Of a DNA stretch of 61,133 nt, positions 2,548 to 61,133 are shown piece after piece. Numbering within the stretch: position 1 is the first letter of the stretch; each line of letters starts with the position of its first letter. This DNA is from a bacterium. Lineage in GTDB: Bacteria; Bacteroidota; Bacteroidia; Bacteroidales; Marinilabiliaceae. The stretch lies in assembly GCA_963643535.1 (NCBI GenBank), contig CAVILU010000002.1, forward strand, positions 6,532-67,664. Reading direction: 5' to 3'. A model generated the notes under the pieces. That model worked only from the letters and a program-made list of their open reading frames with translations, was not told the DNA's origin and did not search any database. Position numbers and translations under genes: made by a program.

Positions 2548-3240
2548 ATGGAAGCCAAAAAGACACCAAAGGCCGACTTGGAGAACAAGAAGATTCTCTT
2601 CACCGAGATCGGTCTGGCTGTGGCCCTCGGCATCACTCTGGCTGCCTTCGAGTGGACTTCTCAGGATGTCACCATCCAGAACCTTGAGGTCCAGCAAGAG
2701 GAGGTAGTCGAGGAGGAAATGATTCCTGTGACCACACAGGATCAGGTCAAACCGCCACCACCACCACCTCCCCCACCACCAGTGGCGGAGTCTCTCAATA
2801 TCGTCGACGACAACACCGAGGTAGCTGAAGATTTCGACTTCAACTCCGAGATGGATGAGAATACCGAGGTCGAGATCCGTGAGGTCGAGGCTGAGGTCGT
2901 CGAGGAGGAGGAGCCTGCTGAGCAGGAGGTCTTCCTTATCGTTGAGCAGATGCCCGTCTTCCCAGGTGGCGACACCGAGCTCCGCAAATACCTCGCATCC
3001 GCTGTCAAGTATCCCGTTATCGCGGCTGAGAACGGCATCCAGGGTCGTGTATTCGTTAAGTTCGTCATCGCTCCCGATGGTTCTGTCACCAATGTCGAGG
3101 TCGCTCGTCCTTTCGACCCGAACCTTGATAAGGAGGCAGTCCGCGTCGTCAAGTCCATGCCTAAGTGGACCCCTGGCAAGCAGCGTGGTAAGGCTGTACG
3201 CGTATCCTACACTGTGCCTATCAACTTCGTCCTCCAGTAG
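2548..3240 (+). CDS. tonB: Energy transducer TonB
   Basis: N-terminal TM anchor, PPPPPPPPPP linker, acidic region, and a C-terminal TonB domain (EQMPVFPGGDTELRKYL...GIQGRVFVKFVIAPDGSV...SMPKWTPGKQRGKAVRVSYTVPINF). Confidence 0.85.
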   Translation: MEAKKTPKADLENKKILFTEIGLAVALGITLAAFEWTSQDVTIQNLEVQQEEVVEEEMIPVTTQDQVKPPPPPPPPPPVAESLNIVDDNTEVAEDFDFNSEMDENTEVEIREVEAEVVEEEEPAEQEVFLIVEQMPVFPGGDTELRKYLASAVKYPVIAAENGIQGRVFVKFVIAPDGSVTNVEVARPFDPNLDKEAVRVVKSMPKWTPGKQRGKAVRVSYTVPINFVLQ

Positions 3241-3280
3241 TCCCGCGACTGCTTGAGCCCGATTTAGGTGCAAAAGCATT

Positions 3281-3318
3281 AGCCCGATACTCTATTTCTT
3301 GAGTGTCGGGCTTTTTTG
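3281..3318 (+). terminator. Rho-independent terminator after tonB
   Basis: agcccgatactc / gagtgtcgggct stem (one G:U) with an 8-nt loop, followed by tttttt. Confidence 0.65.
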
Positions 3319-3327
3319 TGTCCTTAC

Positions 3328-3522
3328 TTCATTATAATGCCAGACGGCTCCGCCAAAGACGCCCATGTTGTAAAATCTGTGCACCCGTACCCCGATATGG
3401 ATGCGCTCCGCGTCGTCAATGCCATGCCACTCTAGATCCCTGGCAAAATGAAAGATGGCTCAGTGAAGGGAAGAACTCAATAGGCAGTGCCCATAAATTT
3501 CAAACTCGGGAAAGGTAAGTGA
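3328..3522 (+). pseudogene. Relic of a second TonB C-terminal domain, with two in-frame stops and no start
   Basis: One frame reads FIIMPDGSAKDAHVVKSVHPYPDMDALRVVNAMPL*IPGKMKDGSVKGRTQ*AVPINFKLGKGK*. It is collinear with the intact TonB C-terminus FVIAPDGSVTNVEVARPFDPNLDKEAVRVVKSMPKWTPGKQRGKAVRVSYTVPINFVLQ. Confidence 0.55.
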
Positions 3523-8019: not shown

Positions 8020-11000
8020 ATGGCTGGAAGTAACCCTATATTAGAGCGTTTGTCGCAAAGTGGTGTCTTTTTCTGGGACGCCTCGCAAAGTCGAGAATTC
8101 GAGGTGAGCGAAAGCTTCCGCGAGTTTCTCGGGCTCAGCAGCTGCAAGTTCGGCATCACGGAGCTTCGCCAGTTCTTGAGCGAGGAGGCTGTCGAATCGT
8201 CTTTCCGCAAGTCGGGACTCGGTGAGAACGAGTGGCACACTTTCTGGACCGTTGGAGGGAAAGACTATGGTATGCGTATCGTAAGGGTAAAGCAATATTA
8301 CGACGCTAAAGGTTTCCGTCACTCAATAGGCACCGCCACACTCGACAACGACGATTCGAGCAAATCTATCATTACCCCGCGCTCACTCGACGCCCCCATA
8401 TCCATTTTCGACGGCAATGCGGCAGGCTACTACCAACGCCAAATGGGCAACGGCAGGGCCGCCACCTACGACCTCATTGCCGATATGAACAAGGCCTTCC
8501 GTTCCCACTTCCCGCCCGATGTGATGGTGTCCATTTGGGAAAAGATTGGCGACGAGTTTGTGTGCGTCTCCGTGGCCGGCCAGATTGCGACAGCTCAGCG
8601 CCACGATGTCTTCCATGCCGGTTTCCGCTGCAAGTCTAAAGTGATGGATCTGGTTTGCAAGAACTATGGCGTCCAAATGTTCGAATCGCTTGAGGATTAT
8701 CGTGGCGTGTCCGACCGTGAGGTGCAAGGCCTCTTGGATTCGGGTTGGCACAACGGTGCCATATGCACCATCCGCTCTATCGACTCTGGCGGCGCATGGG
8801 GCTTCGTCTCTTGTGGGTCTATAAGGCAGCGCACTTGGCGCAACGAGGAGAAACAGCGAATCCAGCTTCTCTCCGACTCGCTCTCCGTCCTTATGGCTCA
8901 GACGAGTGCCTACCAGCAGGTGTTCCATAATCTTGTCATCTCGCAACTCGCATGTGAGGCTGGCGGCTTCTCCACTTGGCAGTGGGACGTCGTGGCCCAT
9001 AAGCGTACGCTGCTTCTGACCGACGGCTCAATGCTCGAAGTCCCATATGACCTCAATGTCCATCATGACGATCGCGACGCATATCTCGCGGCCTTCGCTG
9101 ATGTTGTGGAGGGCAACAAGGCCACCTTCAGCCTGCGCCTGCGCATGCGACAGACGGCGAGCAACAAGACGAAGTGGTTCGACGTGATGTGCAAGGCCGT
9201 AACCTATGGTGCCGATGGCCATGCGGAGAGCATCGTTGGTATCGCACGAGATATAGATGAGCAGGTTCGAGCCGAGGAAATTAAGCAAAAGGAGGTCGAT
9301 CGTCGCAACGAGATTTACGACAAACTCCCTGCCATTATCGCTTTCTGCGACGTCAATGGAGTCCAGAAATACATCAATCAGCGCGCAGTGGAGACCCTTG
9401 GCGTACGCTCCCTTGAGGATCGCTATGGCATCAACTTCTTCGACTGCCCATTGCTTACCGACGACCAGCGGAACCTTATCCGCACCCGCGACTCCTGCTC
9501 TATAGACCTTATATACGACTTCAAGAAAATACGCGAGTCCGGCTACTACCGCACCTCGCGCAACGACTCCATAGAGCTCACCATCCGCTCCGCAAAGCTC
9601 TACTCCGGAGGGGTCATGACGGGCTATCTCTTCGTCTACGTCGACCGCTCTCTCCAGGCGGCCCAAGAGAGGCGCATCAGCCTCCTCGACGGTTTCTTTG
9701 CCGAGATTGGCCGTGTGTCCAAAATCGGCGTCTGCCAGTTCGGACAGGGCGGATTTGTCTCTTCGCAGTGGAACCACAATCTCGCCATGGGCGACTCGCT
9801 CGTACCGTTTAGGTCTTTGGCATCTGAGGCTGCCGATGCTGCGGATCTCGACCGCGTCAACAAGGCTGTCGCCGAACTCTATGTCAATAAGTCTGGCCTA
9901 TGCACCAATCAAGTGCGTGTCCGACAGTCCGATGGCCAGCACGTGGTAAACATCCACTGCTCTTTCTCTTCGATTGTCAACGAGGTGGTCGCCATCTCCG
10001 TAGATGTCACCGAGCAAGAGGAACGTGAGGAGGCCATTGTCCGCGCGCTTCGCAAGAGCGAGCAAGTAGAGAGTCTCCGCTCCCAGTTCTTCAACAATGT
10101 CAGCCACGAGCTCCGCACCCCGCTCAACGCCATTGTCGGCTTCTCCGACCTCATAGCGCAGACCCAGACCGAAGGCGAACTCGCTCGCTACGCCGCAATT
10201 ATCCGCCGCAACAACGAGCAGCTCCTCAATCTCGTGGACGGCATCATGGAGCTCTCGCAGCTCCAGACGGGTAACCTCCGTTTCGTCCGACGAATGATTG
10301 AGGTCGATGCCATCGTCTCCGAGTCTTTCGACCGCATGGACGGACGGCAGAACCAAGGCGTACAGTTCATTGCGACTCACGACCCGAAACTCCGCAATTT
10401 CCGTGTCTCGCTCGACGCTGTCACTACAACCCAGATTGTCAGCAAACTCATCTCCAACGCCTTCAACGCCACCACGAGCGGCTGCGTAATGCTTTGGGCT
10501 ACCGTCGAGAGCGACTACGTGTATTTCCATGTCTCCGACACCGGCTCGGGCATCCCCGATGATAAGCTTAAGGCTATCTTCGATGTCTTTGTCAAGGTCG
10601 ACGAGTTTGCTGTCGGTGCTGGCCTCGGACTCCCGATATGTCGTGAGATGGCTCGTCAGCTGGGCGGCGACATCGGCTATGAGACTACTTTGGGCAAGGG
10701 CTCGCATTTCTGGCTCAAGTTGCCTATCCTTGTCGCTGGTGCTCCCGATTCTTCCGACGGCGGCTCGTCCCATAATGTTGTCGTAATGCCGCATTGGCAG
10801 GGTCTCTCACTCTCCGTGTCGCTCCTCATGTCGAGGTGCAATGTCTTCAGTTGCACTCGCTCCGAACTGTCTAAAGTCTGGATGGACAACCGCCCCGAGC
10901 TTGCGATTCTCGATGTCCGTGAGTGCCCCGATGTCATCCTTCGCTTTATCGAGAACATACGCTCCTTTGGCGATAAGTATAAGATCATTGTCGTCAATAC

Positions 11001-11163
11001 GGCCGACAGTGGTGTCCTCGAGTCGGATATACTCAAGGCTGGCGCACAGGCTGTAGTGGAGGCTCCTCTGTCGGAACACGCGCTCTCAAGGGCTATACTT
11101 CACGTCATGGGCGACGACTTTACTCTGACCCCTTCGGAAGATGTCAGCCGAATAATAGCGTAA
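8020..11163 (+). CDS. Cytoplasmic multi-PAS sensor histidine kinase with degenerate C-terminal receiver-like domain
   Basis: H-box FFNNVSHELRTPLNAIVGF, N-box KLISNAFNAT, G1 DTGSGIP and G2 GAGLGLPICREMA. There are no obvious TM helices. The C-terminal about 130 aa have a receiver-like pattern. Confidence 0.85.
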   Translation: MAGSNPILERLSQSGVFFWDASQSREFEVSESFREFLGLSSCKFGITELRQFLSEEAVESSFRKSGLGENEWHTFWTVGGKDYGMRIVRVKQYYDAKGFRHSIGTATLDNDDSSKSIITPRSLDAPISIFDGNAAGYYQRQMGNGRAATYDLIADMNKAFRSHFPPDVMVSIWEKIGDEFVCVSVAGQIATAQRHDVFHAGFRCKSKVMDLVCKNYGVQMFESLEDYRGVSDREVQGLLDSGWHNGAICTIRSIDSGGAWGFVSCGSIRQRTWRNEEKQRIQLLSDSLSVLMAQTSAYQQVFHNLVISQLACEAGGFSTWQWDVVAHKRTLLLTDGSMLEVPYDLNVHHDDRDAYLAAFADVVEGNKATFSLRLRMRQTASNKTKWFDVMCKAVTYGADGHAESIVGIARDIDEQVRAEEIKQKEVDRRNEIYDKLPAIIAFCDVNGVQKYINQRAVETLGVRSLEDRYGINFFDCPLLTDDQRNLIRTRDSCSIDLIYDFKKIRESGYYRTSRNDSIELTIRSAKLYSGGVMTGYLFVYVDRSLQAAQERRISLLDGFFAEIGRVSKIGVCQFGQGGFVSSQWNHNLAMGDSLVPFRSLASEAADAADLDRVNKAVAELYVNKSGLCTNQVRVRQSDGQHVVNIHCSFSSIVNEVVAISVDVTEQEEREEAIVRALRKSEQVESLRSQFFNNVSHELRTPLNAIVGFSDLIAQTQTEGELARYAAIIRRNNEQLLNLVDGIMELSQLQTGNLRFVRRMIEVDAIVSESFDRMDGRQNQGVQFIATHDPKLRNFRVSLDAVTTTQIVSKLISNAFNATTSGCVMLWATVESDYVYFHVSDTGSGIPDDKLKAIFDVFVKVDEFAVGAGLGLPICREMARQLGGDIGYETTLGKGSHFWLKLPILVAGAPDSSDGGSSHNVVVMPHWQGLSLSVSLLMSRCNVFSCTRSELSKVWMDNRPELAILDVRECPDVILRFIENIRSFGDKYKIIVVNTADSGVLESDILKAGAQAVVEAPLSEHALSRAILHVMGDDFTLTPSEDVSRIIA

Positions 11164-11220
11164 TGCTCCCGACTCCTTATCCACATTCCTGATTCTCAAA
11201 CTCCACACAACCACACTTAT

Positions 11221-12147
11221 ATGTCTCAGCGTCTGCTGCCCGCAGGAGGGCGCATTGCCATAGTATCGCCCTCTGGAGCCCTTGCCGATGAATTTCTTGC
11301 AGGCGGTGTCGGTGCTTTGTGGTCGGCAGGTTATTCTGTGGATGTCATGCCCCATGTGGCGGGTTGCCGGACCAGTGTCTTTTCCGCTTCCGACGACCAG
11401 CGCGCTGCCGACCTTGCCGAGGCTCTCGCCCGCGAGGATGTGGATGTCGTCTGGTGCGCCCGCGGTGGCTATGGTGCCATGCGCACTCTCGAGGCTCTCG
11501 ATGCCTTCGGCGGGTGGCAAAAGGTTATGGGGAATACTGATAAGATTCTTGTGGGATTCAGCGATATCACTGCTTTGCATGCCGCGTCTGCCAGGTGCGG
11601 GCGTTGCGGTCTTCTCGCCCCGATGCTCAAGCATATCTCCAACCATGGGATAGACTCGCCCGATGTCGTGGCTACGCTTTCCCTCCTCCGCGGCGATGGC
11701 TTCTCCCTCTCGCGCCCTGCTATGCCAGGCAGCCGCGATGGCGAGGCCGAGGGAGTCCTGGTTGGTGGCAATCTCTCGATTGTATATTCAATGGCGTCCA
11801 CGCCTCTTATGCCTTCGCCCGACGGGGCAATACTTTTTATCGAGGATCTCTCGGAATACCGCTATCATATCGACCGCATGATTCGCGCGCTCCGTTTTTC
11901 GGGCTTCCTGTCGCGTCTCAATGGCATAATAGTGGGGCAGATGACCGGCATGAAGGATGGTGCCACTGCTTTCGGCTCCGACGCTTTCCAAATAATATCT
12001 GCAGCCGTCGCTGACTATGGATACCCCGTCTTCGTAGGCTATCCGTCGGGCCACGCTCCCGAGGAGAACTATCCTTTGCTCATTGGCGGGCATTGCCGGA
12101 TGAAAGTCGCCGACGGAGTCGGTACTCTCTTTCAGCGGATGGGGTAG
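11221..12147 (+). CDS. ldcA: LD-carboxypeptidase (peptidase S66, muramoyltetrapeptide carboxypeptidase)
   Basis: Nucleophile motif GFSDITALH, C-terminal GYPSGHAPEENYPL (His), length 308 aa. Confidence 0.85.
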   Translation: MSQRLLPAGGRIAIVSPSGALADEFLAGGVGALWSAGYSVDVMPHVAGCRTSVFSASDDQRAADLAEALAREDVDVVWCARGGYGAMRTLEALDAFGGWQKVMGNTDKILVGFSDITALHAASARCGRCGLLAPMLKHISNHGIDSPDVVATLSLLRGDGFSLSRPAMPGSRDGEAEGVLVGGNLSIVYSMASTPLMPSPDGAILFIEDLSEYRYHIDRMIRALRFSGFLSRLNGIIVGQMTGMKDGATAFGSDAFQIISAAVADYGYPVFVGYPSGHAPEENYPLLIGGHCRMKVADGVGTLFQRMG

Positions 12148-12956: not shown

Positions 12957-13027
12957 TGCCCTATAGTATAAAGGTAGTACAGAAGATTCTGGTTCTTTTA
13001 GTCTGGGTTCGAATCCTGGTGGGGCAA
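12957..13027 (+). tRNA. tRNA-Gln (anticodon CTG)
   Basis: Hand-folded cloverleaf: acceptor TGCCCTA/TGGGGCA (U1-A72), D stem GTAT/GTAC, anticodon stem GAAGA/TCTTT, loop TTCTGGT, T arm CTGGG-TTCGAAT-CCTGG. No encoded CCA. Confidence 0.85.
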
Positions 13028-13077
13028 CTATCTTTCTAACAAGATAGATTATAGGTGGAAGACACCTACTTTTGGCT

Positions 13078-13148
13078 TGATCCATAGTATAATGGCAGTA
13101 CAGGAGATTTTGGTTCTCTTAGTCGAGGTTCGAATCCCCGTGGATCAA
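13078..13148 (+). tRNA. tRNA-Gln (anticodon TTG)
   Basis: Acceptor TGATCCA/TGGATCA, anticodon stem GGAGA/TCTCT, loop TTTTGGT, T arm CGAGG-TTCGAAT-CCCCG. Confidence 0.85.
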
Positions 13149-13159
13149 CTTTTATTTCT

Positions 13160-13230
13160 TGCCCTATAGTATAAAGGTAGTACAGAAGATTCTGGTTCTT
13201 TTAGTCTGGGTTCGAATCCTGGTGGGGCAA
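13160..13230 (+). tRNA. tRNA-Gln (anticodon CTG), copy 2
   Basis: Identical to 12957-13027 (203-bp repeat unit). Confidence 0.85.
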
Positions 13231-13280
13231 CTATCTTTCTAACAAGATAGATTATAGGTGGAAGACACCTACTTTTGGCT

Positions 13281-13351
13281 TGATCCATAGTATAATGGCA
13301 GTACAGGAGATTTTGGTTCTCTTAGTCGAGGTTCGAATCCCCGTGGATCAA
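13281..13351 (+). tRNA. tRNA-Gln (anticodon TTG), copy 2
   Basis: Identical to 13078-13148. Confidence 0.85.
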
Positions 13352-13362
13352 CTTTTATTTCT

Positions 13363-13433
13363 TGCCCTATAGTATAAAGGTAGTACAGAAGATTCTGGTT
13401 CTTTTAGTCTGGGTTCGAATCCTGGTGGGGCAA
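13363..13433 (+). tRNA. tRNA-Gln (anticodon CTG), copy 3
   Basis: Identical to 12957-13027. It is the last member of the array and is followed by a terminator. Confidence 0.85.
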
Positions 13434-13440
13434 CGCAAGA

Positions 13441-37757: not shown

Positions 37758-37829
37758 GGCCCGTTCGTCTATCGGTTAGGACGAGAGATTTTCATTCTCT
37801 AAAGAGGAGTTCGACTCTCCTACGGGCTA
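37758..37829 (+). tRNA. tRNA-Glu (anticodon TTC)
   Basis: Hand fold: acceptor GGCCCGT/ACGGGCT (G1:U72 wobble), D arm GTCT-ATCGGTTA-GGAC, anticodon stem AGAGA/TCTCT, loop TTTTCAT, T arm AGGAG-TTCGACT-CTCCT. Confidence 0.85.
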
Positions 37830-38055
37830 CAATTAAAGCTTTCCAACTCCGGAGCCTCCGGCTGTGACACGTCCATCTCACTGTCCGACAGAATAGGCTC
37901 GTGGGAAACTCCAAGGTCAGGTTGCGGCGATGCTGACTTTCATCCGCCTCCTACGAAAAACTACCCCTCCTTAGGACTCCTCCCCGCCCGGGCGGCGCAA
38001 GGCTTTAACTTTTATCTAGCAAAAACATAAACTCAAATATTTTACAAACAAAGCA

Positions 38056-38310
38056 ATGGCAAACCATCAGTCTGCAATCAAGAGGACTCGCCAGATAGCT
38101 GCTCGTCGCGAGCACAATCGCTACTACGCTAAGACCACCCGCAACGCTGTCAAGGCTCTCCGTCTGGCTACCGACAAGAATGAGGCAGCAGCTATGCTCC
38201 CCAAGGTGTCTTCCCTCCTCGACAAGCTCGCAAAGGTTAACATCATCCACAAGAACAAGGCAGCTAACCTCAAGAGCAAGCTCGCTAAGCACGTCAACAA
38301 GCTCGCCTAA
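38056..38310 (+). CDS. rpsT: 30S ribosomal protein S20
   Basis: [33 protein letters not shown]; 84 aa, basic. Confidence 0.95.
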
Positions 38311-38421
38311 GCTCTCGCAGCACAAGCTAAGCTGACTGACAAAAACTGGTGGCCCACTTCTTAGGGCCGCCGCCCCGAGTGGGTGCGATGTGGCGAAGAA
38401 CCTGCACCCCATACATATCAT

Positions 38422-38493
38422 GGCCCGTTCGTCTATCGGTTAGGACGAGAGATTTTCATTCTCTAAAGAGGAGTTCGACTCTCCTACGGGCTA
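38422..38493 (+). tRNA. tRNA-Glu (anticodon TTC), copy 2
   Basis: 72 nt, identical to 37758-37829. Confidence 0.85.
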
Positions 38494-38496
38494 CGG

Positions 38497-38551
38497 CTTG
38501 CCCCGGTAACCTCGCTCTCTGAGCTAAGGTTGCCGGGGCAAGTCGGTTTTT
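38497..38551 (+). terminator. Rho-independent terminator after the second tRNA-Glu
   Basis: cttgccccggtaacc ... ggttgccggggcaag (15 bp, one G:U) followed by tcggttttt. Confidence 0.7.
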
Positions 38552-38714
38552 ATGGGTTTTGTCATCCCCCCCCCTCAAGAACAACACCTTTTGCCCGCTA
38601 TGTAATTTGCAATGTGTTTCATTTTTCTCTCATATGTGCGGAAAATTGCAGTCTATTGCATTTTGGCGGACTTTTGCCTCTAAATTTGTAATGCAATGCA
38701 AAAACATTAAGGGT

Positions 38715-39110
38715 ATGTTGATAGAGCGCTCGGAATATATGTCTATCCTCAAGAGGTGGAAAGACAAGCAAGTTATAAAGGTCGTTACAGGAATATGCCG
38801 TTGCGGGAAATCTTCTTTGCTGAAGATGTTTCTGGAGTACGTGATTAGCGATGGTGCAACTCCGCAACAAGTGCAACATATCAATTTTGAGGATATTGAC
38901 AATGAGCCTTATCTTGACTATCATGCGTTGTATCGCCATGTGAGGGAGAACCTGCAGGAGGGGCGAATGAACTATCTTTTCTTCGACGAGATACAGATGG
39001 TTGACCAATTCCAAAAGGTGATAGATAGCCTATTCTTGCTCGACAACGTTGATATCTACGATAACGGCATCAAACAAATCTATGCGCTGGATTGGTTAAT
39101 GGAGGAATAG
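38715..39110 (+). pseudogene. Truncated DUF4143-type AAA ATPase (in-frame internal deletion)
   Basis: MLIERSEYMSILKRWKDKQVIKVVTGICRCGKSSLLKMF...YLFFDEIQMVDQFQKVIDSLFLLDNVDIY covers Walker A/B. It then joins directly to a C-terminal-like tail, NGIKQIYALDWLMEE. It is 131 aa, far shorter than the roughly 400 aa I recall for this family. Confidence 0.5.
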
Positions 39111-39485
39111 TAATTGCCATTCATTTCACCTCCCTCCAAAAAAAATTCATCCCCCACTTTCCGAAAAACAAATAACAGCTATCGAAAGCCGTGTCGCAAT
39201 ATTGGCAAAAAATGCCAAATTGTGGACACGGCTTTTCATTTTGCGGCCATGTGCCATTAGATTTCACAATCGCCACTCCGGCAGAGCAAAACATAACGCA
39301 CATTTTGCAAGTCCGGCTGTATATTCATAGCCTTCCCATAGCCAATGCCCATCGCCATTCGCCGCGGAAAGCGAAATCACCACTATCGAAACAAACTATC
39401 ACCATCGTTTCGCACACCGATTGCCACGCCATATTTTCGCGTCGGTTTCAAAAAAAACAAACACAGACAATAAACAAACACATCT

Positions 39486-39632
39486 ATGGCAAGCAACATC
39501 CTTCTCGCGGTTACGGCAGCAGTGTCTCCCGCCGACAATTTCGACTCCTTTATTATTCTCGGCGTAGTCCTTGGCGTCGCATTTCTCTTCGGTCTCACTA
39601 AGGTCTCCGAGCGTCGCGGCCGTCAAGCGTAA
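39486..39632 (+). CDS. Possible 48-aa single-TM peptide upstream of thrE-like genes
   Basis: ATG ORF MASNILLAVTAAVSPADNFDSFIILGVVLGVAFLFGLTKVSERRGRQA, below the ORF-track size cut-off. Hydrophobic core, basic tail, and a 27-nt gap to the next gene. Confidence 0.3.
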   Translation: MASNILLAVTAAVSPADNFDSFIILGVVLGVAFLFGLTKVSERRGRQA

Positions 39633-52434: not shown

Positions 52435-52561
52435 TATCTCTTGTTTGTTTTTAAGGTTCTGCAAATATACTTAACTCTTGTCGCATTTTGTTCGCCTGAC
52501 GAACATTTTGCCGCAAGTGTGTTCGCTCTTTGCATTATTCATGTGCAAACGTTTCGGGTGG

Positions 52562-54370
52562 CTACTTCTTCTGCGCCGGTATGTAGACCTCCTCTTCCTC
52601 GTCGTAATATATGTCTTCGTAGCCCGAGCCGTCCTCCTTCTCGTGTTCGATGTGGTAGGTGACTTTGGCTATGAGCTTGCCATTCTCCTCGCGGACAACC
52701 TCGGCGTGGTCGATGGTTGAGAATCGCCAGAGGGAGGTGGAAATGCCTGCCGTCGGGGAGGTTACGAGCATGATGCCGTAGGGGAAGACTGTGCCGACTT
52801 GGGGTGTGAGTATGTTGGTGACGTCTATTATGACGTTTTGTGTGCCGAAGACTATAATTGTCCTCTCACTGCCGTCGGAGCCGGCGACGTTTGTGAACAT
52901 TGGGAACTCCTGCGGCTTCAAATTGTTGAAGTCCGCATTGTCTCCGCCATTTGTTCGCTCATACGACTTTCCTTTTGGAATGCGGAACCAAGTCTTTATT
53001 TTGGAGCCGACGGTCTCGCCTTTGTTGGTTTTTATAGTGTTTGTTTCGTAGGGTAGGTAGATGTAGTCGTTGTCGTCTGCCGCGGTTACTTGCTTTAATG
53101 GATCAAAGTCGTAATGGGAAACGGTCGCCGACTTGTATCCGTTCCTATTTATGTTGTCGTCTTCTATGCGCACGAGGGACTCTGTGCCTAGAAATTGCGA
53201 TATATTCTTACCGTCAGTGCTCTTGAACTTAATAGTTCTCAATTCCCCTCTGGCATCTTCATTGAGTAGGAGTTTGCCGTCTTTGTCCTCGAGTGTCAAC
53301 TGGCAGAATGCCTGCGTTGGTGTGACGTCTTTGCGGTCAAAGAAAAATTGGATATGCTCCGAATTCACAATGTAGCAAGTGAGTTCTCCGTTATCATGCT
53401 GCATCACTCTGATTGAGAATTGCCTGAAGGTCTTGTCTTGTGGCTCGTAGCGGGTGGCGTATAGTGCGCCATGGAGATCCAATATTTTCCATTTCTTGCC
53501 AAGATCGTCAGCCCACCATGTTACGGGCGTTATGAATTCGCTAAGAGGAATGATATCTTTCTCGGCACCTTCGTTTGCGATGCTTGTATTCTCGCTGTTT
53601 GATACGGCTAAAATGTTGTAGATGCATCCGCAGACAAAATTGATTAAGTCCATGCGCACCAGGCCTTTGGACTTTTGCAGATTAATGTCCTTATAAAACC
53701 TGTTGAGCATCGGTGGCCGTTTCACTATGCCTCCGTTTCCTGTCAGTTGCTGGATGATGCCATGGATGTGGTCCACCTTCTCCATTGTGAACTTCGCCTT
53801 AGTATTGGCATTGTAACTCTTGCCATCTTTCTTGAGCGAGCCGTCCTCGTCGCCTACCGATTCTCCGTATTTAGGCATATATGGGAATGCGTCATCCGCA
53901 GCCGATGCAAATTGAAGAAGGACTACAGCAGGGTCGATTTTGAATGATTCCATTTTCTCTAGTGAATCTTTCCACTTTGTGCGCAATGCGTATGGCACGT
54001 CCTCTTTGCTGCCCGTGTCAAGCAGGTAGCGCATGAGGTTTATGAGGTCGGGGTTGTCGCCTTCGTTCACTGCCAACGGTTTGCCGGCCTCGTTGCGAGA
54101 GCCGATAAGTAGGTTATACATGCCGTATTCTTTGGCTTTATCCTTGCCGCATGCCTCGTATGATTCCATAAACCATTCGAGGTCAACGTTTGGCCATTGG
54201 GTTTTGCAGTAGTCTACAATCATCTCCCAAAGGTCCTCGGGATCCTTGATGCCGTCTAGGTCGTTCTTTTTCAGAAACGCCTTCCACTCGGCGTCGGACC
54301 ACGTCAGCAGGTTGCGCTGCTTGATGATCTTAAGTAGGAACTGACGGTGATTATTGGACGTCAAATACAC
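52562..54370 (-). CDS. Hypothetical 602-aa protein, no recognisable domain (orphan island)
   Basis: Long uninterrupted ORF in the A/T-richer segment. No signal peptide or TM. N-terminal half is helical-looking, C-terminal half beta-rich, with an acidic tail (YYDEEEEVY). GTG start in the track, so the start is uncertain. Confidence 0.6.
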   Translation of the reverse strand: MYLTSNNHRQFLLKIIKQRNLLTWSDAEWKAFLKKNDLDGIKDPEDLWEMIVDYCKTQWPNVDLEWFMESYEACGKDKAKEYGMYNLLIGSRNEAGKPLAVNEGDNPDLINLMRYLLDTGSKEDVPYALRTKWKDSLEKMESFKIDPAVVLLQFASAADDAFPYMPKYGESVGDEDGSLKKDGKSYNANTKAKFTMEKVDHIHGIIQQLTGNGGIVKRPPMLNRFYKDINLQKSKGLVRMDLINFVCGCIYNILAVSNSENTSIANEGAEKDIIPLSEFITPVTWWADDLGKKWKILDLHGALYATRYEPQDKTFRQFSIRVMQHDNGELTCYIVNSEHIQFFFDRKDVTPTQAFCQLTLEDKDGKLLLNEDARGELRTIKFKSTDGKNISQFLGTESLVRIEDDNINRNGYKSATVSHYDFDPLKQVTAADDNDYIYLPYETNTIKTNKGETVGSKIKTWFRIPKGKSYERTNGGDNADFNNLKPQEFPMFTNVAGSDGSERTIIVFGTQNVIIDVTNILTPQVGTVFPYGIMLVTSPTAGISTSLWRFSTIDHAEVVREENGKLIAKVTYHIEHEKEDGSGYEDIYYDEEEEVYIPAQKK

Positions 54371-54505
54371 AGGGTGGTTCCCGTGGGTATAATCTGGATT
54401 TTAATGAATCTCTAATTAAAACTGGCGACAACAGTCCATCGAATATGTATTTTTCTGTTCGTCTGGTAGCGCCGTATTAGTCAACTTTGATTGTTTATTA
54501 GCATT

Positions 54506-54706
54506 ATGTGGATAATCGTTGTGCTTGTTATTTGTGCTATGCTTTATGGTGCATATGACTATTTTAATTCCGGTGATGCGGAAGTGGATGCCTATGTAGG
54601 TGGAGATCCTATTACTGGTTGTTGGGAGCGAATGAAATCTACTGGTTGCGGTTGCATCATTTTGATAATTGTAGCCGCTGCAATTGTGGCGTATTTTCAA
54701 AAATAG
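54506..54706 (+). CDS. Hypothetical 66-aa two-TM Cys-rich peptide
   Basis: MWIIVVLVICAMLYGAY - acidic/Cys loop (GDPITGCWERMKSTGCGC) - IILIIVAAAIVAYF. First gene of the plus-strand operon. An ATG was chosen inside the TTG-started ORF. Confidence 0.45.
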   Translation: MWIIVVLVICAMLYGAYDYFNSGDAEVDAYVGGDPITGCWERMKSTGCGCIILIIVAAAIVAYFQK

Positions 54707-54779
54707 GATGTTGCTGAATATCCGGTGCGTCTGATAATTTCGAGTTCGGAACTAAAGAGAATACATACAGATATTAGAT

Positions 54780-55991
54780 ATGAGTGCTTTGGACGGGCAG
54801 TTGTCTCAATGTATGAATGACATTGAGGCTGTACAGAAAGAGCTTGATGCAAACCTCACTTTGTTAGCTAAGCATGTAGACCAAGGATTCGGTCAACTTC
54901 GCAACCTTAACAAGCAAAGTATGGAGTTCGCTAAGCAACTTTCGGACAGTGGGCATGAAGTGGCTGGTATGGCCGTGCAATTGGCGGGTGCCGCAATTAG
55001 CGGTATCTCTGGGGCGGTAACTGCAGCGCAAGCTGCGGCTGCGCATAATGACGCCCTCGCTAAGTTGATGCAGCAAAAAGTGAAAATTGCGAGCGAGCGA
55101 TATGAAGGTATCTGTCGGATTCAGAAAATAGCCGAAAGGAACGAAGCGACTCTATTTAACTTGTTTTCGCAGACATTGATGCAGGAATATAGTGAAAGAG
55201 AGTTAACCTCGAATCCTGCGAATGCTAAAGGAATCATCAATGAGATTAATCGTGTTGATGATGCCTACAAGTTGTCCCGCTCTAACTTGTTGATGGTTGG
55301 TTTCCTTTTGGATGAATACAAGGCTTGGATGAATAACCAACAAAAATCGGGGTCGCGGCGTCCTATTCCCTCTTTTGTGAACTATTTCATCCACGATTGG
55401 ATGTTTGACCATAATAACGGTATGGGTCTGAATTTGCAGTCTGTTATTTCCCGTAAAGGGACTCGGGGAAAAATAACGGGTGCCGAGCTATTGTTCCTCA
55501 CAGACTCTTCAATAACAGCTTGTGGCCTTTATAACAAAATGTCCAACGGAGTTATTCGCGGTATTGGTGTCGAACCGGGTGGTGTCGCACGAAAACTAGT
55601 TGAAAATAACAGTGCATACAAAGAGTATGCATCGTCACTGTCGTCTTATAACGGATGGTGGCATGCTCCAGCACTTATAGCCTTGGTAATTGTAGGAGTG
55701 TCAATTTGGTTCGACGGTTTATGTTTGGGCTGGATGTCCGAATGGTGGGCTTTCTTCCGTTGGGTTGTTATGATTATCATTGGAATCATCGAATTTGGTG
55801 TCGTTATGATGTCATGTTCATCTCTCTTCAATGATGAGGACAAGCAGAAACGTCTTAATGAGATCTTCAACAAAGCTCAAAAGAAACAGCTCGATGAGAT
55901 GGGGTATGTAAAGATTTACGAGCCTGATCTTAAAGAGAAAAATGTTCTTTGGGAAGGGACCAAAGGATTTTTCAATGGTATATTCGGTTAA
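54780..55991 (+). CDS. Hypothetical 403-aa coiled-coil protein with Ala/Gly-rich segment and C-terminal TM hairpin
   Basis: Heptad-like N-terminal about 200 aa. AGMAVQLAGAAISGISGAVTAAQAAAA. Two adjacent hydrophobic helices, WWHAPALIALVIVGVSIWFDGLCLGW and WWAFFRWVVMIIIGIIEFGVVMMSC. Confidence 0.6.
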   Translation: MSALDGQLSQCMNDIEAVQKELDANLTLLAKHVDQGFGQLRNLNKQSMEFAKQLSDSGHEVAGMAVQLAGAAISGISGAVTAAQAAAAHNDALAKLMQQKVKIASERYEGICRIQKIAERNEATLFNLFSQTLMQEYSERELTSNPANAKGIINEINRVDDAYKLSRSNLLMVGFLLDEYKAWMNNQQKSGSRRPIPSFVNYFIHDWMFDHNNGMGLNLQSVISRKGTRGKITGAELLFLTDSSITACGLYNKMSNGVIRGIGVEPGGVARKLVENNSAYKEYASSLSSYNGWWHAPALIALVIVGVSIWFDGLCLGWMSEWWAFFRWVVMIIIGIIEFGVVMMSCSSLFNDEDKQKRLNEIFNKAQKKQLDEMGYVKIYEPDLKEKNVLWEGTKGFFNGIFG

Positions 55992-56055
55992 TTCCTAGCC
56001 GTAGGAAAATCAAGGTCGGGTTTATCCCAACTTTAATGTAATAAAATAAAAAGTA

Positions 56056-56493
56056 ATGGAAAACTACAATGATGGTTTGGTTACAACGGATTCTTTGCAA
56101 CGTGTTGAGAACGTATGCGAGAGCTGTAATGTTGTAGCTACGAAGGTTGAAAACGCCTTAACTGTGATAAACAGCGTTGGCTGTACAATTAAGGATACTG
56201 TACAGATTATCGAGACAGTAAAGTATGACATCGCTAAGCTCGATCATGACCTTGATATGTTTCTCGCAGAAAGTAATACTCGATTGGAGAAATTCAAGTT
56301 GGCTATGCCCATACTTGAAAAGCAATTAACCTTGATCTCTAATCGTATTGACAACATCACCAATACGATGCTCACTAATGTTATGGACCCCAAAGACCCC
56401 AATAGTGTTCAGAAACATAGCCAAATGATGGATATGCTCAACAGTGCCAACGATAGCTTCAACAATATGCTCGTGAAACTGATAACCTTGTGA
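56056..56493 (+). CDS. Hypothetical 145-aa all-helical protein
   Basis: The ORF has helix-favouring, Asn/Leu/Lys-rich composition. No TM and no motif recognised. Confidence 0.5.
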   Translation: MENYNDGLVTTDSLQRVENVCESCNVVATKVENALTVINSVGCTIKDTVQIIETVKYDIAKLDHDLDMFLAESNTRLEKFKLAMPILEKQLTLISNRIDNITNTMLTNVMDPKDPNSVQKHSQMMDMLNSANDSFNNMLVKLITL

Positions 56494-56762
56494 GTGTTCA
56501 CTTTGCTCCTTTGGATTATTTAATAGGCCCTTTGTTATATCCTCAACCAACGGCAAGTCGTTAGCCTTCTTTGTCGGTTATCAACCTGAAGACTCTGAGG
56601 AGATTGTCGGTAAAGTTGTCTTCTGTGACTCTCTCAGTTTCCTCAACAAGTTTAGCTTTTGGGGAGGTAAAGTGGCCGTTATGAAAAATCCGGCATACTA
56701 ATATGGCAATGGGGCAAAAGCCCTCACTTAAGATTTCTATGACTGCTCAAGCAAATAAGATT

Positions 56763-57308
56763 ATGAAGAAAACATTTGCGTTCCTTTGCCTTTTGGCAAC
56801 TATGTTAACCTGTCTCACGTCTTGCGAAAAGTCTACTAAGGACAAGCTTACCGGTTCGTGGGACTTCTCGACAACCTTGTCTTCAAGTGAATTTGATGGT
56901 ACCGCTCAAGGTTCCAAAAAACTCAACAGTGATGGCTCTTTCTATATGCAAGGTACAGTTACCTTGTCTGGCCCGGATTACTCTTTAGGCTATGAACTTG
57001 AGATGGCAATTGTTGTGACATTTGAAGAATCAGGAGACTGGGATGTTAATGGTGAAAATATAGTTTATTCACCGTCAAACCAGTCTTGTGAACTCGTAAA
57101 AATGGAATACAAGGATCCAGACAGCGGAGAGTCCCTTGTCTTGTCTGGTGATGACCTCGATGGTTTAAGAGATTCGTTTGAAAAAGAAGTGGGGCCTTCT
57201 ATATTTGAGGTGAGCAGTGAAAAAATCATTTTGCTGAAAGATAATAAGTTTGTGACTGAGGAACAGTCAAATGATGGGTCGACAATAAAATACACTTACA
57301 CCCGTTAA
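56763..57308 (+). CDS. Lipoprotein, lipocalin-like (tentative)
   Basis: MKKTFAFLCLLATMLTCLTSC lipobox. LTGSWDFST start and alternating beta pattern resemble lipocalin-like DUF lipoproteins. Confidence 0.55.
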   Translation: MKKTFAFLCLLATMLTCLTSCEKSTKDKLTGSWDFSTTLSSSEFDGTAQGSKKLNSDGSFYMQGTVTLSGPDYSLGYELEMAIVVTFEESGDWDVNGENIVYSPSNQSCELVKMEYKDPDSGESLVLSGDDLDGLRDSFEKEVGPSIFEVSSEKIILLKDNKFVTEEQSNDGSTIKYTYTR

Positions 57309-57345
57309 AGTAAAGACATACACTGAATTTTAAAATAATAAACTT

Positions 57346-57978
57346 ATGTCAGAAGAAGAAGAAGAAGATTTCGACGAACAAGTTGAGAGTGACTGCGAGT
57401 CGGCTGTTCGTTGTGGTTATGATCTCCAGTTGGCTGTTAGAGCCCAACAGGAGCTTATAACGGTGAAAGAGTTATCTGAAGCGCAGGTTGATTCTGTGCT
57501 GGAGGATGAGGTGAACAATCGAACGGCCCAAGTCTTTATGGGTTGGCTGGTAATAGCCATTTACATTGCCGTCTTCATTGGGCTGATCTTTTCCGAGGGC
57601 AGCGTGCTTTTCGGTCTTGGCGCATTATTAAGTGGTGTCTTGTTTTACCTCGGAAGAAACAATGCGAAGGCGATAGAGAGGTATTTCAAAAAGCTCATAG
57701 CGGGCGGCTCTTTGTCTGTGATGTCGAATGCCTTCCCCTCTTTGGGTGTCATTCTTCTGCTTGGCATAGCCTACCGTTTCGCTGCCAAGCATTTTGATGC
57801 CATTTCAAGTCTTGAACGGGACTTCTCTCCGATTCTTATGCTGCTTCTTTTTATTGTGGGTTCTGTTTGCGCTATCGGAATACCCGTTTGGATGGGTGTG
57901 TATACCACATACTCGATTCCCAAGTACGAAAAGACCAAAAGCGATAATGGCGACATAGTTCTTAAAAGGAAAGCTTAA
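57346..57978 (+). CDS. Hypothetical 210-aa four-TM membrane protein with poly-Glu N-terminus
   Basis: MSEEEEEDFDEQVESDCES cytoplasmic head, then four hydrophobic helices. Last gene before the terminator. Confidence 0.55.
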   Translation: MSEEEEEDFDEQVESDCESAVRCGYDLQLAVRAQQELITVKELSEAQVDSVLEDEVNNRTAQVFMGWLVIAIYIAVFIGLIFSEGSVLFGLGALLSGVLFYLGRNNAKAIERYFKKLIAGGSLSVMSNAFPSLGVILLLGIAYRFAAKHFDAISSLERDFSPILMLLLFIVGSVCAIGIPVWMGVYTTYSIPKYEKTKSDNGDIVLKRKA

Positions 57979-58026
57979 GAATCTTTAGTGGCGAGGCTCA
58001 AGTTTCCCCGTCCACCACACAATATT

Positions 58027-58068
58027 TGTCCGGGTGCATTGTTATCATGATGTGCCCGGACATTTTTA
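58027..58068 (+). terminator. Rho-independent terminator closing the orphan operon
   Basis: tgtccgggtgcat-tgttatc-atgtgcccggaca (13 bp, two G:U) followed by ttttta. Confidence 0.75.
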
Positions 58069-58172
58069 TTGTTCTAAACAACAAACTCTTCCGCCGAAAG
58101 AAAGCGACAGGGGAGTTTTTATTTTCTCACCACACCCCAAAAAACAAAAGGAGAGAGGATAACGTCTATTCA

Positions 58173-58211
58173 GCGGGGCAACGCCAACTGTTAATTGCTA
58201 ATTGTTAACTG
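58173..58211. repeat. 22-bp repeat GCGGGGCAACGCCAACTGTTAA plus heptad array (ccaactg ttaattg ctaattg ttaactg)
   Basis: An exact 22-mer recurs at 60041-60062. The heptads overlap the last codons and the stop of the AAA-ATPase gene. Confidence 0.85.
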
Positions 58212-59931
58212 ATTCCATTCTCCGAAGTTCCCACCCCTCGAACTGCAAAATAATCAAATGCAGAGCAGTCCCCTGCCGCAGAGCCTCGACACGCGGAGCC
58301 GCAGCGTAACGCCTGATCTGCTCCACCGCCTCATCCCATTGCTTCTGAGCTCGTTCCTCGGCCCATTCCCCCTTCTTGAGCATCTTGAGCTCAATGATAT
58401 AGCTGTGAGATGCCTTATATCGCGAGAAGTCGGGCAATAGGAAAAAGTCGCAATACCCGTGGCTCATCTCCAGTTCGGGAGTCAGGATGTAGTAGTTGTT
58501 GAGGCTTAGGTAGGCCATGAAGAAACCCTGCAGATTCCGCTCTCCCTCTATGCCGTCGCGGACGGATGACACTCGGGCGTATGCCTCGGAGAGGAATTGA
58601 AATACAGGTTGCCAATTGCCGTTATAGGCAAGCTCGTAGAAGTTGGTGTCCAGTTCATCCGTATCGACTGTGGCAACTTCCTCAAACTGCTCTAACAAAT
58701 ATTCGTAGTATTGCTTACGGACGTTATTGTTTGGGATGCTGAGTATGGTCTGGCTTCCGCGCATACGGTTGTATGTCAACATCCCATAGTAGAAGAGCAG
58801 GCTCGTGAACATCTTGGGTTTCACGAGCATACGGGCTGGGAACGATTCCTCTATCTGAGCAGATATCTCCCCTTGCTCGGCAATTTTATAGACAATGCCT
58901 TTGCGGTCGCCGTCCAACTTGTCGAGCTGGAGCAGCTTCTTCATTTTAGTGTAGTCCGTCTTCGTGTTAGGGTCCACCATATTGGATGGTGTGCGTTTCC
59001 TGTTCACAAGGCTGTCGAGATAATACAGCACCATGTCGCTATTGAAGACTCGACTCTGATTTTCGAGAGCATCTTCCGAGAAACAGTAGTTGTCGTACCA
59101 CGGCTTGATGCTTTCGATGGTTGCCTCGACATCCGTGCTCTCCGCCAGCATCTCGGAGTCTTTGTAGTATTGGATCATCTCCCGCACATCCTCTGTCGAG
59201 AAGCCTAGCATCTGGTTGAACGAGTCGTCGGTCGAGAGGTTAAGGGCGATGTTGAAGCCGCTTGTGAGGTCGTCGAGCGTCACTGGGCTAACGCCCATCA
59301 TAAAGATGCGCGTTGGGAGTACCTTGAATATCTTGAATATGTCGCGGTAGAAACCGCTGGCGTGCGTAAGTGCTGTGTACACGGCTTCGCCTTTCTCGTT
59401 GAGCACGTTGTTCGTGAAGTTGTCGTACTCGTCGAGGATTAGGTATATCTGTGTGCCGTGCTCTTTGGCGTAGTCGGTGATTACATTCAGTTTTGCCGCG
59501 GCGTCCGAGGCGTTTCTGACTGCGTCTATGACCTCGGTGGGGTACTCATCTGAGTATTTGCTCATAAAACTGCTGAGTTTCATGGCCATATACTCATTGA
59601 AGCAAGCCTCCAGATTGTCAATGTTCCCCCTTATGAGTGAGAAGTCCAAATGCAAAATCTGAAACTTTCCACGTAGCGGGGTAGGGTGGCTGCCAATCCA
59701 AAGGTCGCCAAAGAGCTCGTCGAAGCGGTCGGCGCATTTGCTGTCGTAGTAAGTGGACAGCATATTGAGGAAAAGGCTCTTGCCGAATCGCCTGGGACGG
59801 ATAAGGAACAGGAAATTCCCGCGCGTCTCAAGCATAGGGATATACATAGTCTTGTCGACGTAGTACTTATTCTGTCTCCTAAGTTCTACGAAGTCCGAGA
59901 TACCGTATGGCAATAGCTTGACTTGCTCCAT
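58198..59931 (-). CDS. AAA-ATPase-like protein with C-terminal PD-(D/E)XK nuclease domain (PDDEXK_9-type)
   Basis: N-terminus LPYGISDFVELRRQNKYYVDKTMYI...FLIRPRRFGKSLFL (P-loop-like). C-terminus SHGYCDFFLLP...SYIIELKMLK (D...ELK). 577 aa. Confidence 0.85.
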   Translation of the reverse strand: MEQVKLLPYGISDFVELRRQNKYYVDKTMYIPMLETRGNFLFLIRPRRFGKSLFLNMLSTYYDSKCADRFDELFGDLWIGSHPTPLRGKFQILHLDFSLIRGNIDNLEACFNEYMAMKLSSFMSKYSDEYPTEVIDAVRNASDAAAKLNVITDYAKEHGTQIYLILDEYDNFTNNVLNEKGEAVYTALTHASGFYRDIFKIFKVLPTRIFMMGVSPVTLDDLTSGFNIALNLSTDDSFNQMLGFSTEDVREMIQYYKDSEMLAESTDVEATIESIKPWYDNYCFSEDALENQSRVFNSDMVLYYLDSLVNRKRTPSNMVDPNTKTDYTKMKKLLQLDKLDGDRKGIVYKIAEQGEISAQIEESFPARMLVKPKMFTSLLFYYGMLTYNRMRGSQTILSIPNNNVRKQYYEYLLEQFEEVATVDTDELDTNFYELAYNGNWQPVFQFLSEAYARVSSVRDGIEGERNLQGFFMAYLSLNNYYILTPELEMSHGYCDFFLLPDFSRYKASHSYIIELKMLKKGEWAEERAQKQWDEAVEQIRRYAAAPRVEALRQGTALHLIILQFEGWELRRMESVNN

Positions 59932-60040
59932 GTCGCAATCATTTTATAGTCCACAAAGATACGGAATTTTCCCCGTGGTGCTAAATCATAAGTTTTAAGT
60001 GAGTATACAACCCAGCTCCCCAAAGGAAAAATCCCACTCT

Positions 60041-60090
60041 GCGGGGCAACGCCAACTGTTAACTGATAACTGTTAACTGTTAACTGATAA
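60041..60090. repeat. Second copy of the 22-bp repeat plus heptad array (ccaactg ttaactg ataactg ttaactg ttaactg ataag)
   Basis: The exact 22-mer match to 58173-58194 is followed by 5.7 heptads. Confidence 0.85.
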
Positions 60091-60277
60091 GTTTTCCCGC
60101 GCCCCAATCAGCCAATATCCACCATCTGCCCTTCAGAAACTGGGACTCTGCTTTTTTATTCGCAAATCGCTGCTGTTTTCCGCTTCCCGCCCCTCTATAT
60201 TTGCAATGTCATCGGAAGAGAAATGACTTTCGAAGATACTAACTAACAATTAAATAACTAGCAAATATCATAAAACA

Positions 60278-60816: not shown

Positions 60817-61133
60817 ATGACAAGACTAAGCGATAAGGCTTTCGCTGTCATGGCGGCCTGCGAAAAGACAAAGCAGCCATTTGGAATAACGGTGGACTAC
60901 GTCGGTCCTCAGCACTACAAGTTTGTCTGGGCTTTCAAGATGAACGCCGCCAAGGCCCGTCGCGAGGGTTATGACTCCAATTCGGTCCACGGCGATGTCT
61001 CTTTCGACGCCGAGTATCCTGGTTGCCCATGCTGTGGAGCCAAGAGTTTCTACCTCTGCATCTGCGGCAAGATCGTTTGCCACGATGGCGTCAGCAACTC
61101 CTCTGTCTGTCCCCATTGCGGAGAGTATGTCGA
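60817..61133 (+). CDS. Cys-rich metal-binding protein, probable TerY-C-like domain; 3' end beyond the window
   Basis: Hand translation gives MTRLSDKAFAVMAACEKTKQPFGITVDYVGPQHYKFVWAFKMNAAKARREGYDSNSVHGDVSFDAEYPGCPCCGAKSFYLCICGKIVCHDGVSNSSVCPHCGEYV. There are 8 Cys plus His in 38 residues. The family assignment is from memory only. Confidence 0.45.
   Translation, partial: MTRLSDKAFAVMAACEKTKQPFGITVDYVGPQHYKFVWAFKMNAAKARREGYDSNSVHGDVSFDAEYPGCPCCGAKSFYLCICGKIVCHDGVSNSSVCPHCGEYV

Follow-up and report, generated by a model that had tools for sequence, protein, structure and literature searches.

The DNA analyzed here, called the window below, is a stretch of 61,133 nucleotides (nt) from contig CAVILU010000002.1 of the GenBank assembly GCA_963643535.1. 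Our study concerns the interval 52465-58068 next to galE, whose six open reading frames (ORFs) are labeled A to F; the DUF1703-type gene 3' of this interval is labeled G. The interval is very probably a mosaic accessory island beside galE, put together from at least three separate units, namely A, B-C-D and E-F. B-C-D is the only conserved gene string and recurs in relatives wherever the flank can be read. By its features, the locus is a strain-variable island in a hot spot of the chromosome, and it illustrates clearly, for uncultured gut bacteria, how one site can be either empty or filled and how its cargo can vary.

Filled and empty sites in related loci

The window was compared with 28 related loci (L001-L028). 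Gene families were grouped from the ORFs of the window and of the first 12 loci, and the later loci were covered by tblastn and by tables of called genes. In the relatives, the string begins with A on the minus strand. On the plus strand there follow fam7, a small Cys-rich gene of 144-215 aa that is divergent from A, in some genomes the genes of a 687-aa coiled-coil protein and of two small transmembrane (TM) peptides, and then B-C-D. Directly after D, the relatives have G or a TPR gene in convergent orientation, and E and F are never found there. In L001, L007 and L009, the segment from A to D is bracketed by galE and the TPR gene. The same junction is empty in ten loci from a single, commonly sampled relative (L018-L027; GalE 95.7% identical), where the TPR gene lies 51 nt from galE (e.g. 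at 2889-4945 in L018). None of A, B, C, D and G was detected in these loci, which reach about 3.9 kb past galE towards the TPR gene and 10 kb in the opposite direction. Hence, the A-to-D segment, with or without G, represents an insertion/deletion polymorphism, and the site is prone to rearrangement. Furthermore, the block from GH2 to ilvE is inverted in L018-L027 relative to the window. In these ten loci, a gene of an MCP-type chemoreceptor follows the TPR gene.

The cargo of filled sites also varies. L011 has GalE and IlvE proteins that are 99% identical to those of the window, the flanking DNA is 84-93% identical (dS about 0.3) and A is 78% identical; the operon divergent from A is wholly different from that of the window. 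The cargo (4314-9860 in L011; 1-3120 in L004) comprises fam7, a 209-aa protein, four small proteins and an AAA+ ATPase that matches the PADLOC model of IetA with an E-value of 2e-33 over about 290 residues. This alternative cargo may be a separate uncharacterised system. Its 209-aa protein shows a weak match to the UDG superfamily, and two of the four small proteins share a domain.

With a fixed site beside galE and before the TPR gene, which is either empty or filled with varying cargo, the locus resembles known strain-variable genomic islands and hot spots of the defence-island type that lie between conserved housekeeping genes. Like these, it carries cargo that is low in GC, fast-evolving and exchanged, in one case with an IetA-like ATPase. 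The difference lies in the machinery: according to Pfam and NCBIfam, no integrase or transposase domain occurs among the island proteins, no tRNA lies nearer than 14 kb to the island, no border or att-like repeats exist besides those around G, and the window contains no recognised defence system. No target-site duplication was found at the island borders when filled and empty sites were compared. Relatives of A or C are missing from IMG/VR contigs, GenBank phages and PLSDB plasmids, and a phage or plasmid origin was rejected for this reason. A preliminary description of this DNA, made from the bare sequence, had already reported the lack of an integrase or transposase among the six genes, and it had proposed a horizontally acquired accessory or defence hot spot. 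The former statement stands, and so does the horizontally exchanged accessory hot spot, on the empty site, the variable cargo, discordant synonymous distances and composition.

The host is an uncultured gut-associated lineage, and a Bacteroidales type is consistent with the gene content. The GalE protein of the window belongs to a 90%-identity cluster of 114 sequences and is found on hundreds of contigs. The A and C families, in contrast, are tiny. An exhaustive profile search with the A family retrieved 16 matching clusters among 1.84e9 cluster representatives, none of them with an informative domain; homologs of C form nine clusters with 52-100% identity among 5.8e9 proteins, and a scan of metagenome contigs added one more at 41% identity (L017). 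The host clade is thus reasonably sampled, and the island genes occur in a minority of it. All six genes together are present in only one other record, L010, whose DNA is 99.97% identical to the window. The co-occurrence of the six genes outside this genome, raised in the preliminary description, is therefore limited to the same strain, but A, B, C and D are found together elsewhere. The labels of the metagenome-assembled genomes are in conflict: some relatives are annotated as 'Bifidobacteriaceae bacterium' (e.g. L009) and others as 'Marinilabiliaceae bacterium', with GalE in the same 90% cluster. At least one of these labels is probably wrong.

Gene content and composition of the island

Gene A (52562-54370, minus strand) encodes 602 aa from a GTG start. 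The five genes on the plus strand are B (54506-54706; 66 aa from ATG, or 71 aa from a TTG at 54491), C (54780-55991; 403 aa), D (56056-56493; 145 aa), E (56763-57308; 181 aa from MKK, with the ORF opening at 56703) and F (57346-57978; 210 aa). The gaps from B to F measure 73, 64, 269 and 37 nt. Between F and the convergent gene G (58198-59931, minus strand) lies a hairpin resembling an intrinsic terminator on the plus strand (58027-58068), whose 16-bp stem (58027-58062) is followed by a T-run and which is the strongest of the region. The positions and sizes of the ORFs, the gaps and the terminator agree fully with those reported before. The same applies to the topologies described for B, C, D, E and F, which were reproduced by a Kyte-Doolittle hydropathy scan, the source of the TM topologies used here.

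The mean GC content of 1-kb windows is 0.433 in the island and 0.546 ± 0.035 outside, and none of the outside 1-kb windows is as low as the island mean. GC at third codon positions (GC3) amounts to 0.41-0.49 in C to F, compared with 0.65-0.87 in housekeeping genes (ilvE, galE and others), and the codon-usage distance to the pooled reference is 0.22-0.32 for B to F, compared with 0.06-0.16 for the reference genes. Neither A (GC3 0.62, distance 0.15) nor G (GC3 0.69, distance 0.125) shows this deviation. The shift in composition is thus a property of B-F and does not extend over the whole interval; the A/T-richer interval that had been described is real, but its extent has to be narrowed, since A does not take part in it. 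In C and D, GC3 lies below that of the host in a 55%-GC host as well as in a 40%-GC host; on L017, an unrelated 40%-GC contig, the two genes fall about 12-20 GC3 points under their host. Such a low GC3 in two hosts is a typical trait of accessory genes that are shared through a common pool.

Profile libraries (Pfam, NCBIfam, PHROGs and, as the library of defence models, PADLOC-DB 2.0) were queried with A-F, plus G and H. For A to F, no significant match was obtained in any of these libraries or among PDB sequences, in accordance with the earlier impression that none of the six carries a family signature. The idea that a known defence family might be among them is not sustained, as PADLOC finds none. 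For the defence, toxin-immunity or envelope-stress roles suggested in the preliminary description, the data offer hints from context. PDB sequence profiles for the families of A, C and D yield nothing but coiled-coil noise, and an Rfam scan of the island for non-coding RNA gave no match at E <= 0.1. The families of A, C and D are very narrow and uncharacterised, and none of them belongs to a known family of defence proteins, toxins or pore formers.

The B-C-D triad

The B peptide has two TM segments with a GCGC motif before the second one. Homologs of B are located immediately upstream of C in every locus that shows this flank. Paralogs exist as well, among them fam19 and fam20 of L009; B and its paralogs measure 60-76 aa, and GCGC precedes the last TM segment in most B-type peptides, with a single GC in fam20.

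The C protein carries a TM hairpin at residues 293-351, and the positive-inside rule places the N-terminal stretch of about 290 residues and the C-terminal one of about 50 residues in the cytoplasm. C is thus predicted to be an inner-membrane-anchored protein with a helical cytoplasmic N-domain and a short cytoplasmic tail. Its first 190 residues are predicted to form long helices, with a predicted local distance difference test (pLDDT) of 60-80; the AlphaFold2 (AF2) model as a whole, built from nine sequences, reaches a pLDDT of 47.8. Conserved features of the family are an invariant, Ala/Gly-rich hydrophobic stretch at residues 57-92 or so and the motif GK(I/V)TGAELLFL.

D is all-helical, has no TM segment and is cytoplasmic. 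It is the best-conserved member of the triad, with 80% identity to its homologs in L001-L009 where C reaches 60-67%. The PADLOC models return only coiled-coil noise for D (E about 0.006-0.02). C and D are adjacent in every locus that shows the downstream flank of C, including the locus of the 41%-identical homolog, L017, in which D is 46% identical and overlaps the stop codon of C by 8 nt. On the same contig, the gene of an LHH nuclease (PF14411, HNH/EndoVII-type, stand-alone, E 4e-18) lies 35 nt after C-D and is followed by a WYL/WCX regulator (1872-3419 for the LHH/WYL part); an Abi_2 fragment (6220-6549) is found 4 kb away. In L001, a WYL gene adjoins galE.

The ratio of nonsynonymous to synonymous substitutions (dN/dS) amounts to 0.20-0.25 for A, 0.16-0.26 for C, 0.07-0.10 for D and about 0.07 for G; for galE and ilvE it ranges from 0.003 to 0.06. 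These values indicate that the island genes are real and constrained, yet that their proteins evolve 5-50 times faster than those of the neighbors. Between L001 and L009, C and D have synonymous distances of 0.52 and 0.19, well below the value of 1.10 for galE. We conclude that the exchange of B-C-D between these species postdates their split.

Genes E and F

The E protein has a lipoprotein signal with the lipobox LTSC. It is similar in size and 29-35% identical to the members of its family, and 29-33% identical to those lipoproteins of 175-177 aa that are encoded after DUF6140 in the relatives, where the genes of the E family lie 5-8 kb further downstream, past genes with DUF805, DUF1232 and DUF6140. 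Two of the seven members of the E family match Lipocalin_4 (PF13648; best E 2.3e-5). The assignment of E, which itself has no Pfam match, is thus transitive; E is probably a lipoprotein of the Lipocalin_4 type. In none of the relatives is E linked to B-C-D.

The F protein shows four TM segments and an acidic head (MSEEEEED). It is nearly a singleton, with two members in its 90% cluster, and no ortholog was detected as a significant tblastn match in any of the fetched loci. An hhalign alignment of F with the 4-TM module at the N-terminus of the DUF805 proteins is collinear over 162 columns but weak (E 2.3e-4, probability 44%). F is a probable remote relative of this module as it occurs in the DUF805 proteins of the relatives, and E-F appear to have been brought beside D by a rearrangement.

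The preliminary description had presented B to F as a closed five-gene operon with an all-envelope make-up. Read as one unit that was acquired together with A, all six genes cooperating, such an operon has in its favor that the five genes lie on the same strand with short gaps, that no strong terminator precedes position 58027 and that B to F share a low GC3. The comparative maps largely refute it. Only B-C-D recur together in relatives; E and F are absent beside them in all of these genomes, where D is directly followed by the convergent G or TPR gene, and the E family, as well as F by its weak profile match, belongs to a different downstream cluster. Moreover, the gap between D and E is 269 nt long, and A, D and most of C (the stretch of some 290 residues) are cytoplasmic and do not belong to the envelope. 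We therefore consider a single cooperating operon very improbable. The case calls for caution, because a tidy same-strand 'operon' of orphan genes is here a recent juxtaposition of unrelated pieces, and the real unit, B-C-D, becomes visible through comparative maps.

Gene A and its rearranged 5' end

According to the hydropathy scan, A has neither a TM segment nor a signal. The AF2 model (four sequences) is helical in its first 270 residues or so and beta-rich in the remainder, at low confidence (pLDDT 53.1). A is a cytoplasmic alpha+beta protein of a tiny, fast-evolving family. Its conserved motifs, VRMDxINxVxGC, WRIP...YE and PYGIMLVxSPT, have no known match, and a Foldseek search of the model against the PDB gave no match at E <= 0.001. 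In P0024, an unrelated secreted amidase/GHL10 protein of 1452 aa, five Ig repeats of the FlgD_ig type match positions 293-348 of the A profile. This match hints that A may contain an Ig-like beta-sandwich, and it carries no functional information.

The spacer between A and B is 120 nt long and contains the last 45 or so codons, including the stop codon, of a DUF805/FISUMP-type gene. This 3' remnant (54337-54480, plus strand) overlaps the GTG start of A and matches the C-terminus of a 715-aa DUF805 protein of L001 with 64% identity across 45 aa (tblastn, E 2e-12). The fragment is the scar of a rearrangement, and a deletion or rearrangement has also removed fam7 and the promoter of A. In keeping with this, fam7 is present in L001, L007, L009, L004, L011 and L012 and missing from the window; the first residues of A, up to about position 10, cannot be aligned with any homolog; and the Bacteroidetes -7 box TAATTTTG (TAnnTTTG), which L001, L007 and L009 have about 40 nt upstream of A, is absent. 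Taken together, the loss of fam7, the gene fragment, the unaligned start of A and the lost -7 box identify the copy in the window as a rearranged derivative. Neither A nor B was found to be preceded by a canonical Bacteroidetes promoter in the window. An invertible element or phase-variable promoter between the two genes was considered and rejected, as no inverted repeats flanking the spacer were found.

One might go further and regard the island as what is left of a mobile element or of rearranged genes, in a state of decay and without current function in this genome. The gene fragment in the spacer, the loss of fam7 and of the start and promoter of A, the missing canonical -7 box for A and B, and the truncation of A in L004 and of G in L001 all point in this direction. 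Against it stand the six intact ORFs, dN/dS values of 0.07-0.26 for A, C and D across several species pairs, and the order and spacing of B-C-D, which are kept down to 41% identity. On balance, decay of the island as a whole is improbable.

The history of A differs from that of the triad. Two deeply divergent types of A (36% identity) replace one another at the site and coexist in L011, and a homolog of only 26% identity (L015) is still located directly upstream of a galE gene. A may have been subject to allelic or paralogous replacement rather than to repeated import. The paralogs of L011, at 2-1711 and 10001-11812, are 36% and 78% identical to A of the window and lie 8 kb apart; next to the distant one, a B-like gene is convergent with A and not divergent. 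In L028, which contains the most distant homolog of A, the neighboring gene is unrelated to fam7.

Possible functions of the triad

C shows distant resemblances in two directions. Sub-threshold matches to T7_gp14 (PF24072) occur in six of the nine C members (residues 62-122, best E 3.6e-4); C of the window scores 13.4 bits, with a cut-off of 27, over model positions 5-61 of 187, and it aligns with PHROG 805 'internal virion protein' at an E-value of 0.024. What C has in common with gp14 of phage T7 is an Ala/Gly-rich hydrophobic helix followed by an amphipathic helix. Membership in this family was rejected, because the score is below the gathering threshold, the match covers about 60 biased residues and there is no phage context. 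In a Foldseek search of the PDB, the model of C retrieves AhlC, AhlB and HblL1 as top matches, with E-values of 0.4-0.9, TM-scores of 0.1-0.37 and no match at E <= 0.001. We treat the T7_gp14 and Foldseek results as leads to a membrane-inserting helix and not as evidence for homology.

The Foldseek matches direct attention to the alpha-pore-forming toxins (alpha-PFTs) of the ClyA family (AhlABC, Hbl, Nhe), with which C and D share long helical bundles, a hydrophobic end segment and an arrangement of helical genes in tandem. C was rejected as a member of this family: it has no sequence match, Foldseek E-values of 0.4 or more, no signal peptide and a TM hairpin of its own. A broader version of this idea holds that B-C-D, in some genomes together with the 687-aa coiled-coil protein, forms an exported alpha-helical pore-forming toxin or bacteriocin, for which E and F, or B, would provide immunity. 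The nature of the top structural matches (components of tripartite alpha-PFTs), the row of helical proteins, the strain-variable distribution and the LHH nuclease of toxin type beside C-D in L017 fit such a toxin. However, C and D lack signal peptides, no genes of a secretion system are located nearby, the bulk of C is predicted to be cytoplasmic, the structural matches are not significant, and similarity in sequence to ClyA, Hbl, Nhe or Ahl is absent. An exported toxin is hardly credible in view of these data.

A different comparison concerns the membrane-disrupting effectors of abortive infection that possess a C-terminal anchor of two TM segments, such as the 2-TM effectors of CBASS and of retrons and the SLATT-type proteins. 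C resembles them in architecture only: it combines a large cytoplasmic N-domain with a C-terminal TM hairpin, is accompanied by small partners and resides in an accessory locus. It differs from them in that there is no sequence similarity, no PADLOC match, and no enzyme that generates or senses a nucleotide signal.

Based on the accessory distribution, the fast evolution and the neighbors, we propose tentatively that B-C-D may be a conflict module whose C protein remodels the membrane or makes it permeable, in a manner similar to abortive infection or to a toxin/antitoxin pair; this mechanism is less likely than not. The triad would most likely act on the inner membrane from its cytoplasmic face. 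The C-terminal hairpin would anchor C, and the Ala/Gly-rich hydrophobic helix of C could insert into the bilayer. D, which overlaps C in L017 in a manner suggestive of translational coupling, and B could serve as partners or restraints of C. Mosaic anatomy and this mechanism together make up our joint best explanation of the locus, to which we would give an even chance. A more specific proposal, an undescribed three-gene conflict system acting on the membrane, possibly together with A and fam7, in which C depolarises the cell and D and B hold it back, is unlikely; the system would then be confined to one uncultured clade of Bacteroidales type and its lower-GC relatives, and shuffled via DUF1703 genes. 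As for a new mechanism, nothing yet shows one.

Several observations weigh against a conflict module. The island proteins have no significant match to a defence, toxin or pore-forming family in the profile libraries or the PDB. The association of the LHH and WYL genes with C-D is seen in one locus only, L017, and the IetA match of the alternative cargo may reflect generic AAA+ similarity, with no protease partner evident. The similarity to T7_gp14 falls into the Ala/Gly-rich stretch of low complexity. Because the models of C and A are of low confidence (pLDDT 48 and 53), their Foldseek matches are at the noise level of generic helical bundles. In addition, the copy in the window may be poorly expressed, given that A and B have no canonical promoter, and A could be an old resident of the lineage and not mobile cargo, judging from the position of its distant homolog next to galE.

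An alternative holds that B-C-D and A are lineage-specific cellular genes with a dispensable role at the inner membrane, for instance in its organisation, in the response to stress or in a niche-specific process, and that they look like orphans for want of cultured members of the clade. All of the genes are under purifying selection, A keeps its place next to galE down to 26% identity, neither mobility genes nor phage or plasmid relatives nor matches to defence families are found, and the surrounding region of the relatives is rich in small membrane proteins of no known function. Yet the genes are absent from a well-sampled relative of the same divergence, their dN/dS is 5-50 times that of the neighboring housekeeping genes, they show signs of exchange between species and have a GC content below that of the host in two hosts, and conflict-type genes are their neighbors in L017 and L011. 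We regard this alternative, too, as less likely than not. If, in turn, B-C-D (or A with its partner) proved to be a true conflict module, the membrane effectors known from defence and toxin systems of gut Bacteroidota would gain a new protein family, and attention would turn to DUF1703 genes as recombination scaffolds of such islands.

Gene G, its repeats and the right-hand neighbors

G is a bona fide DUF1703 protein with the full two-domain architecture, consisting of AAA-ATPase_like (PF09820; 180.8 bits, E 4e-53) and PDDEXK_9 (PF08011; 86.1 bits, E 2e-24). The ATPase with a PD-(D/E)XK nuclease domain that the preliminary description had placed here is thereby confirmed, as is its assignment of a TerY_C gene further to the right. 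A review lists PF09820 for RdrA (PMC10952713); G itself has no match in PADLOC, RdrA models included, and a role as the RdrA protein of RADAR was rejected for this reason.

Copies of the G family are present in L001 (truncated), L004, L007 and L011, and in L007 two direct copies bracket the island. The DUF1703 family is multi-copy and recombining in other Bacteroidota (PMC6387759). G resembles these proteins in domain architecture and in belonging to a multi-copy recombining family, with two copies around the island in L007. G travels with the island in most relatives, and its repeated copies are plausible substrates for recombination that shuffles the site.

In the window, a 56-nt direct repeat (core GCGGGGCAACGCCAACTGTTAA) flanks G, with the left copy at 58156-58211 (plus strand) and the right copy at 60024-60079; zero such matches are expected by chance. 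The right copy, upstream of G, runs into a 7-nt tandem repeat (AACTGTT, five units, 60054-60090). The 56-nt repeat is absent from the 17 loci searched, including every locus that carries G. It could be the boundary of a cassette or the relic of a lost second copy of G.

Beyond the repeat, the segment 60278-60625 encodes a 115-aa TM protein resembling a Gly zipper, with its own TAnnTTTG box at 60196. The start of the TerY_C gene follows, a partial ORF (60817-61131, E 2e-8) that extends past the end of the window (feature to 61133). In relatives, the position of the 115-aa protein and the TerY_C gene is taken by the TPR gene.

Other features of the window

Two further regions of the window were noted. 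Duplicated genes for tRNA-Glu(TTC), at 37758-37830 and 38422-38494, are situated at the left edge of a second low-GC stretch (38005-39601; GC 0.42-0.51), which includes a fragment of an AAA_14 ATPase (38634-39110) and unassigned small ORFs and which may be another small insertion. At 12957-13434, five tRNA-Gln genes are arranged in tandem, with CTG and TTG anticodons alternating.

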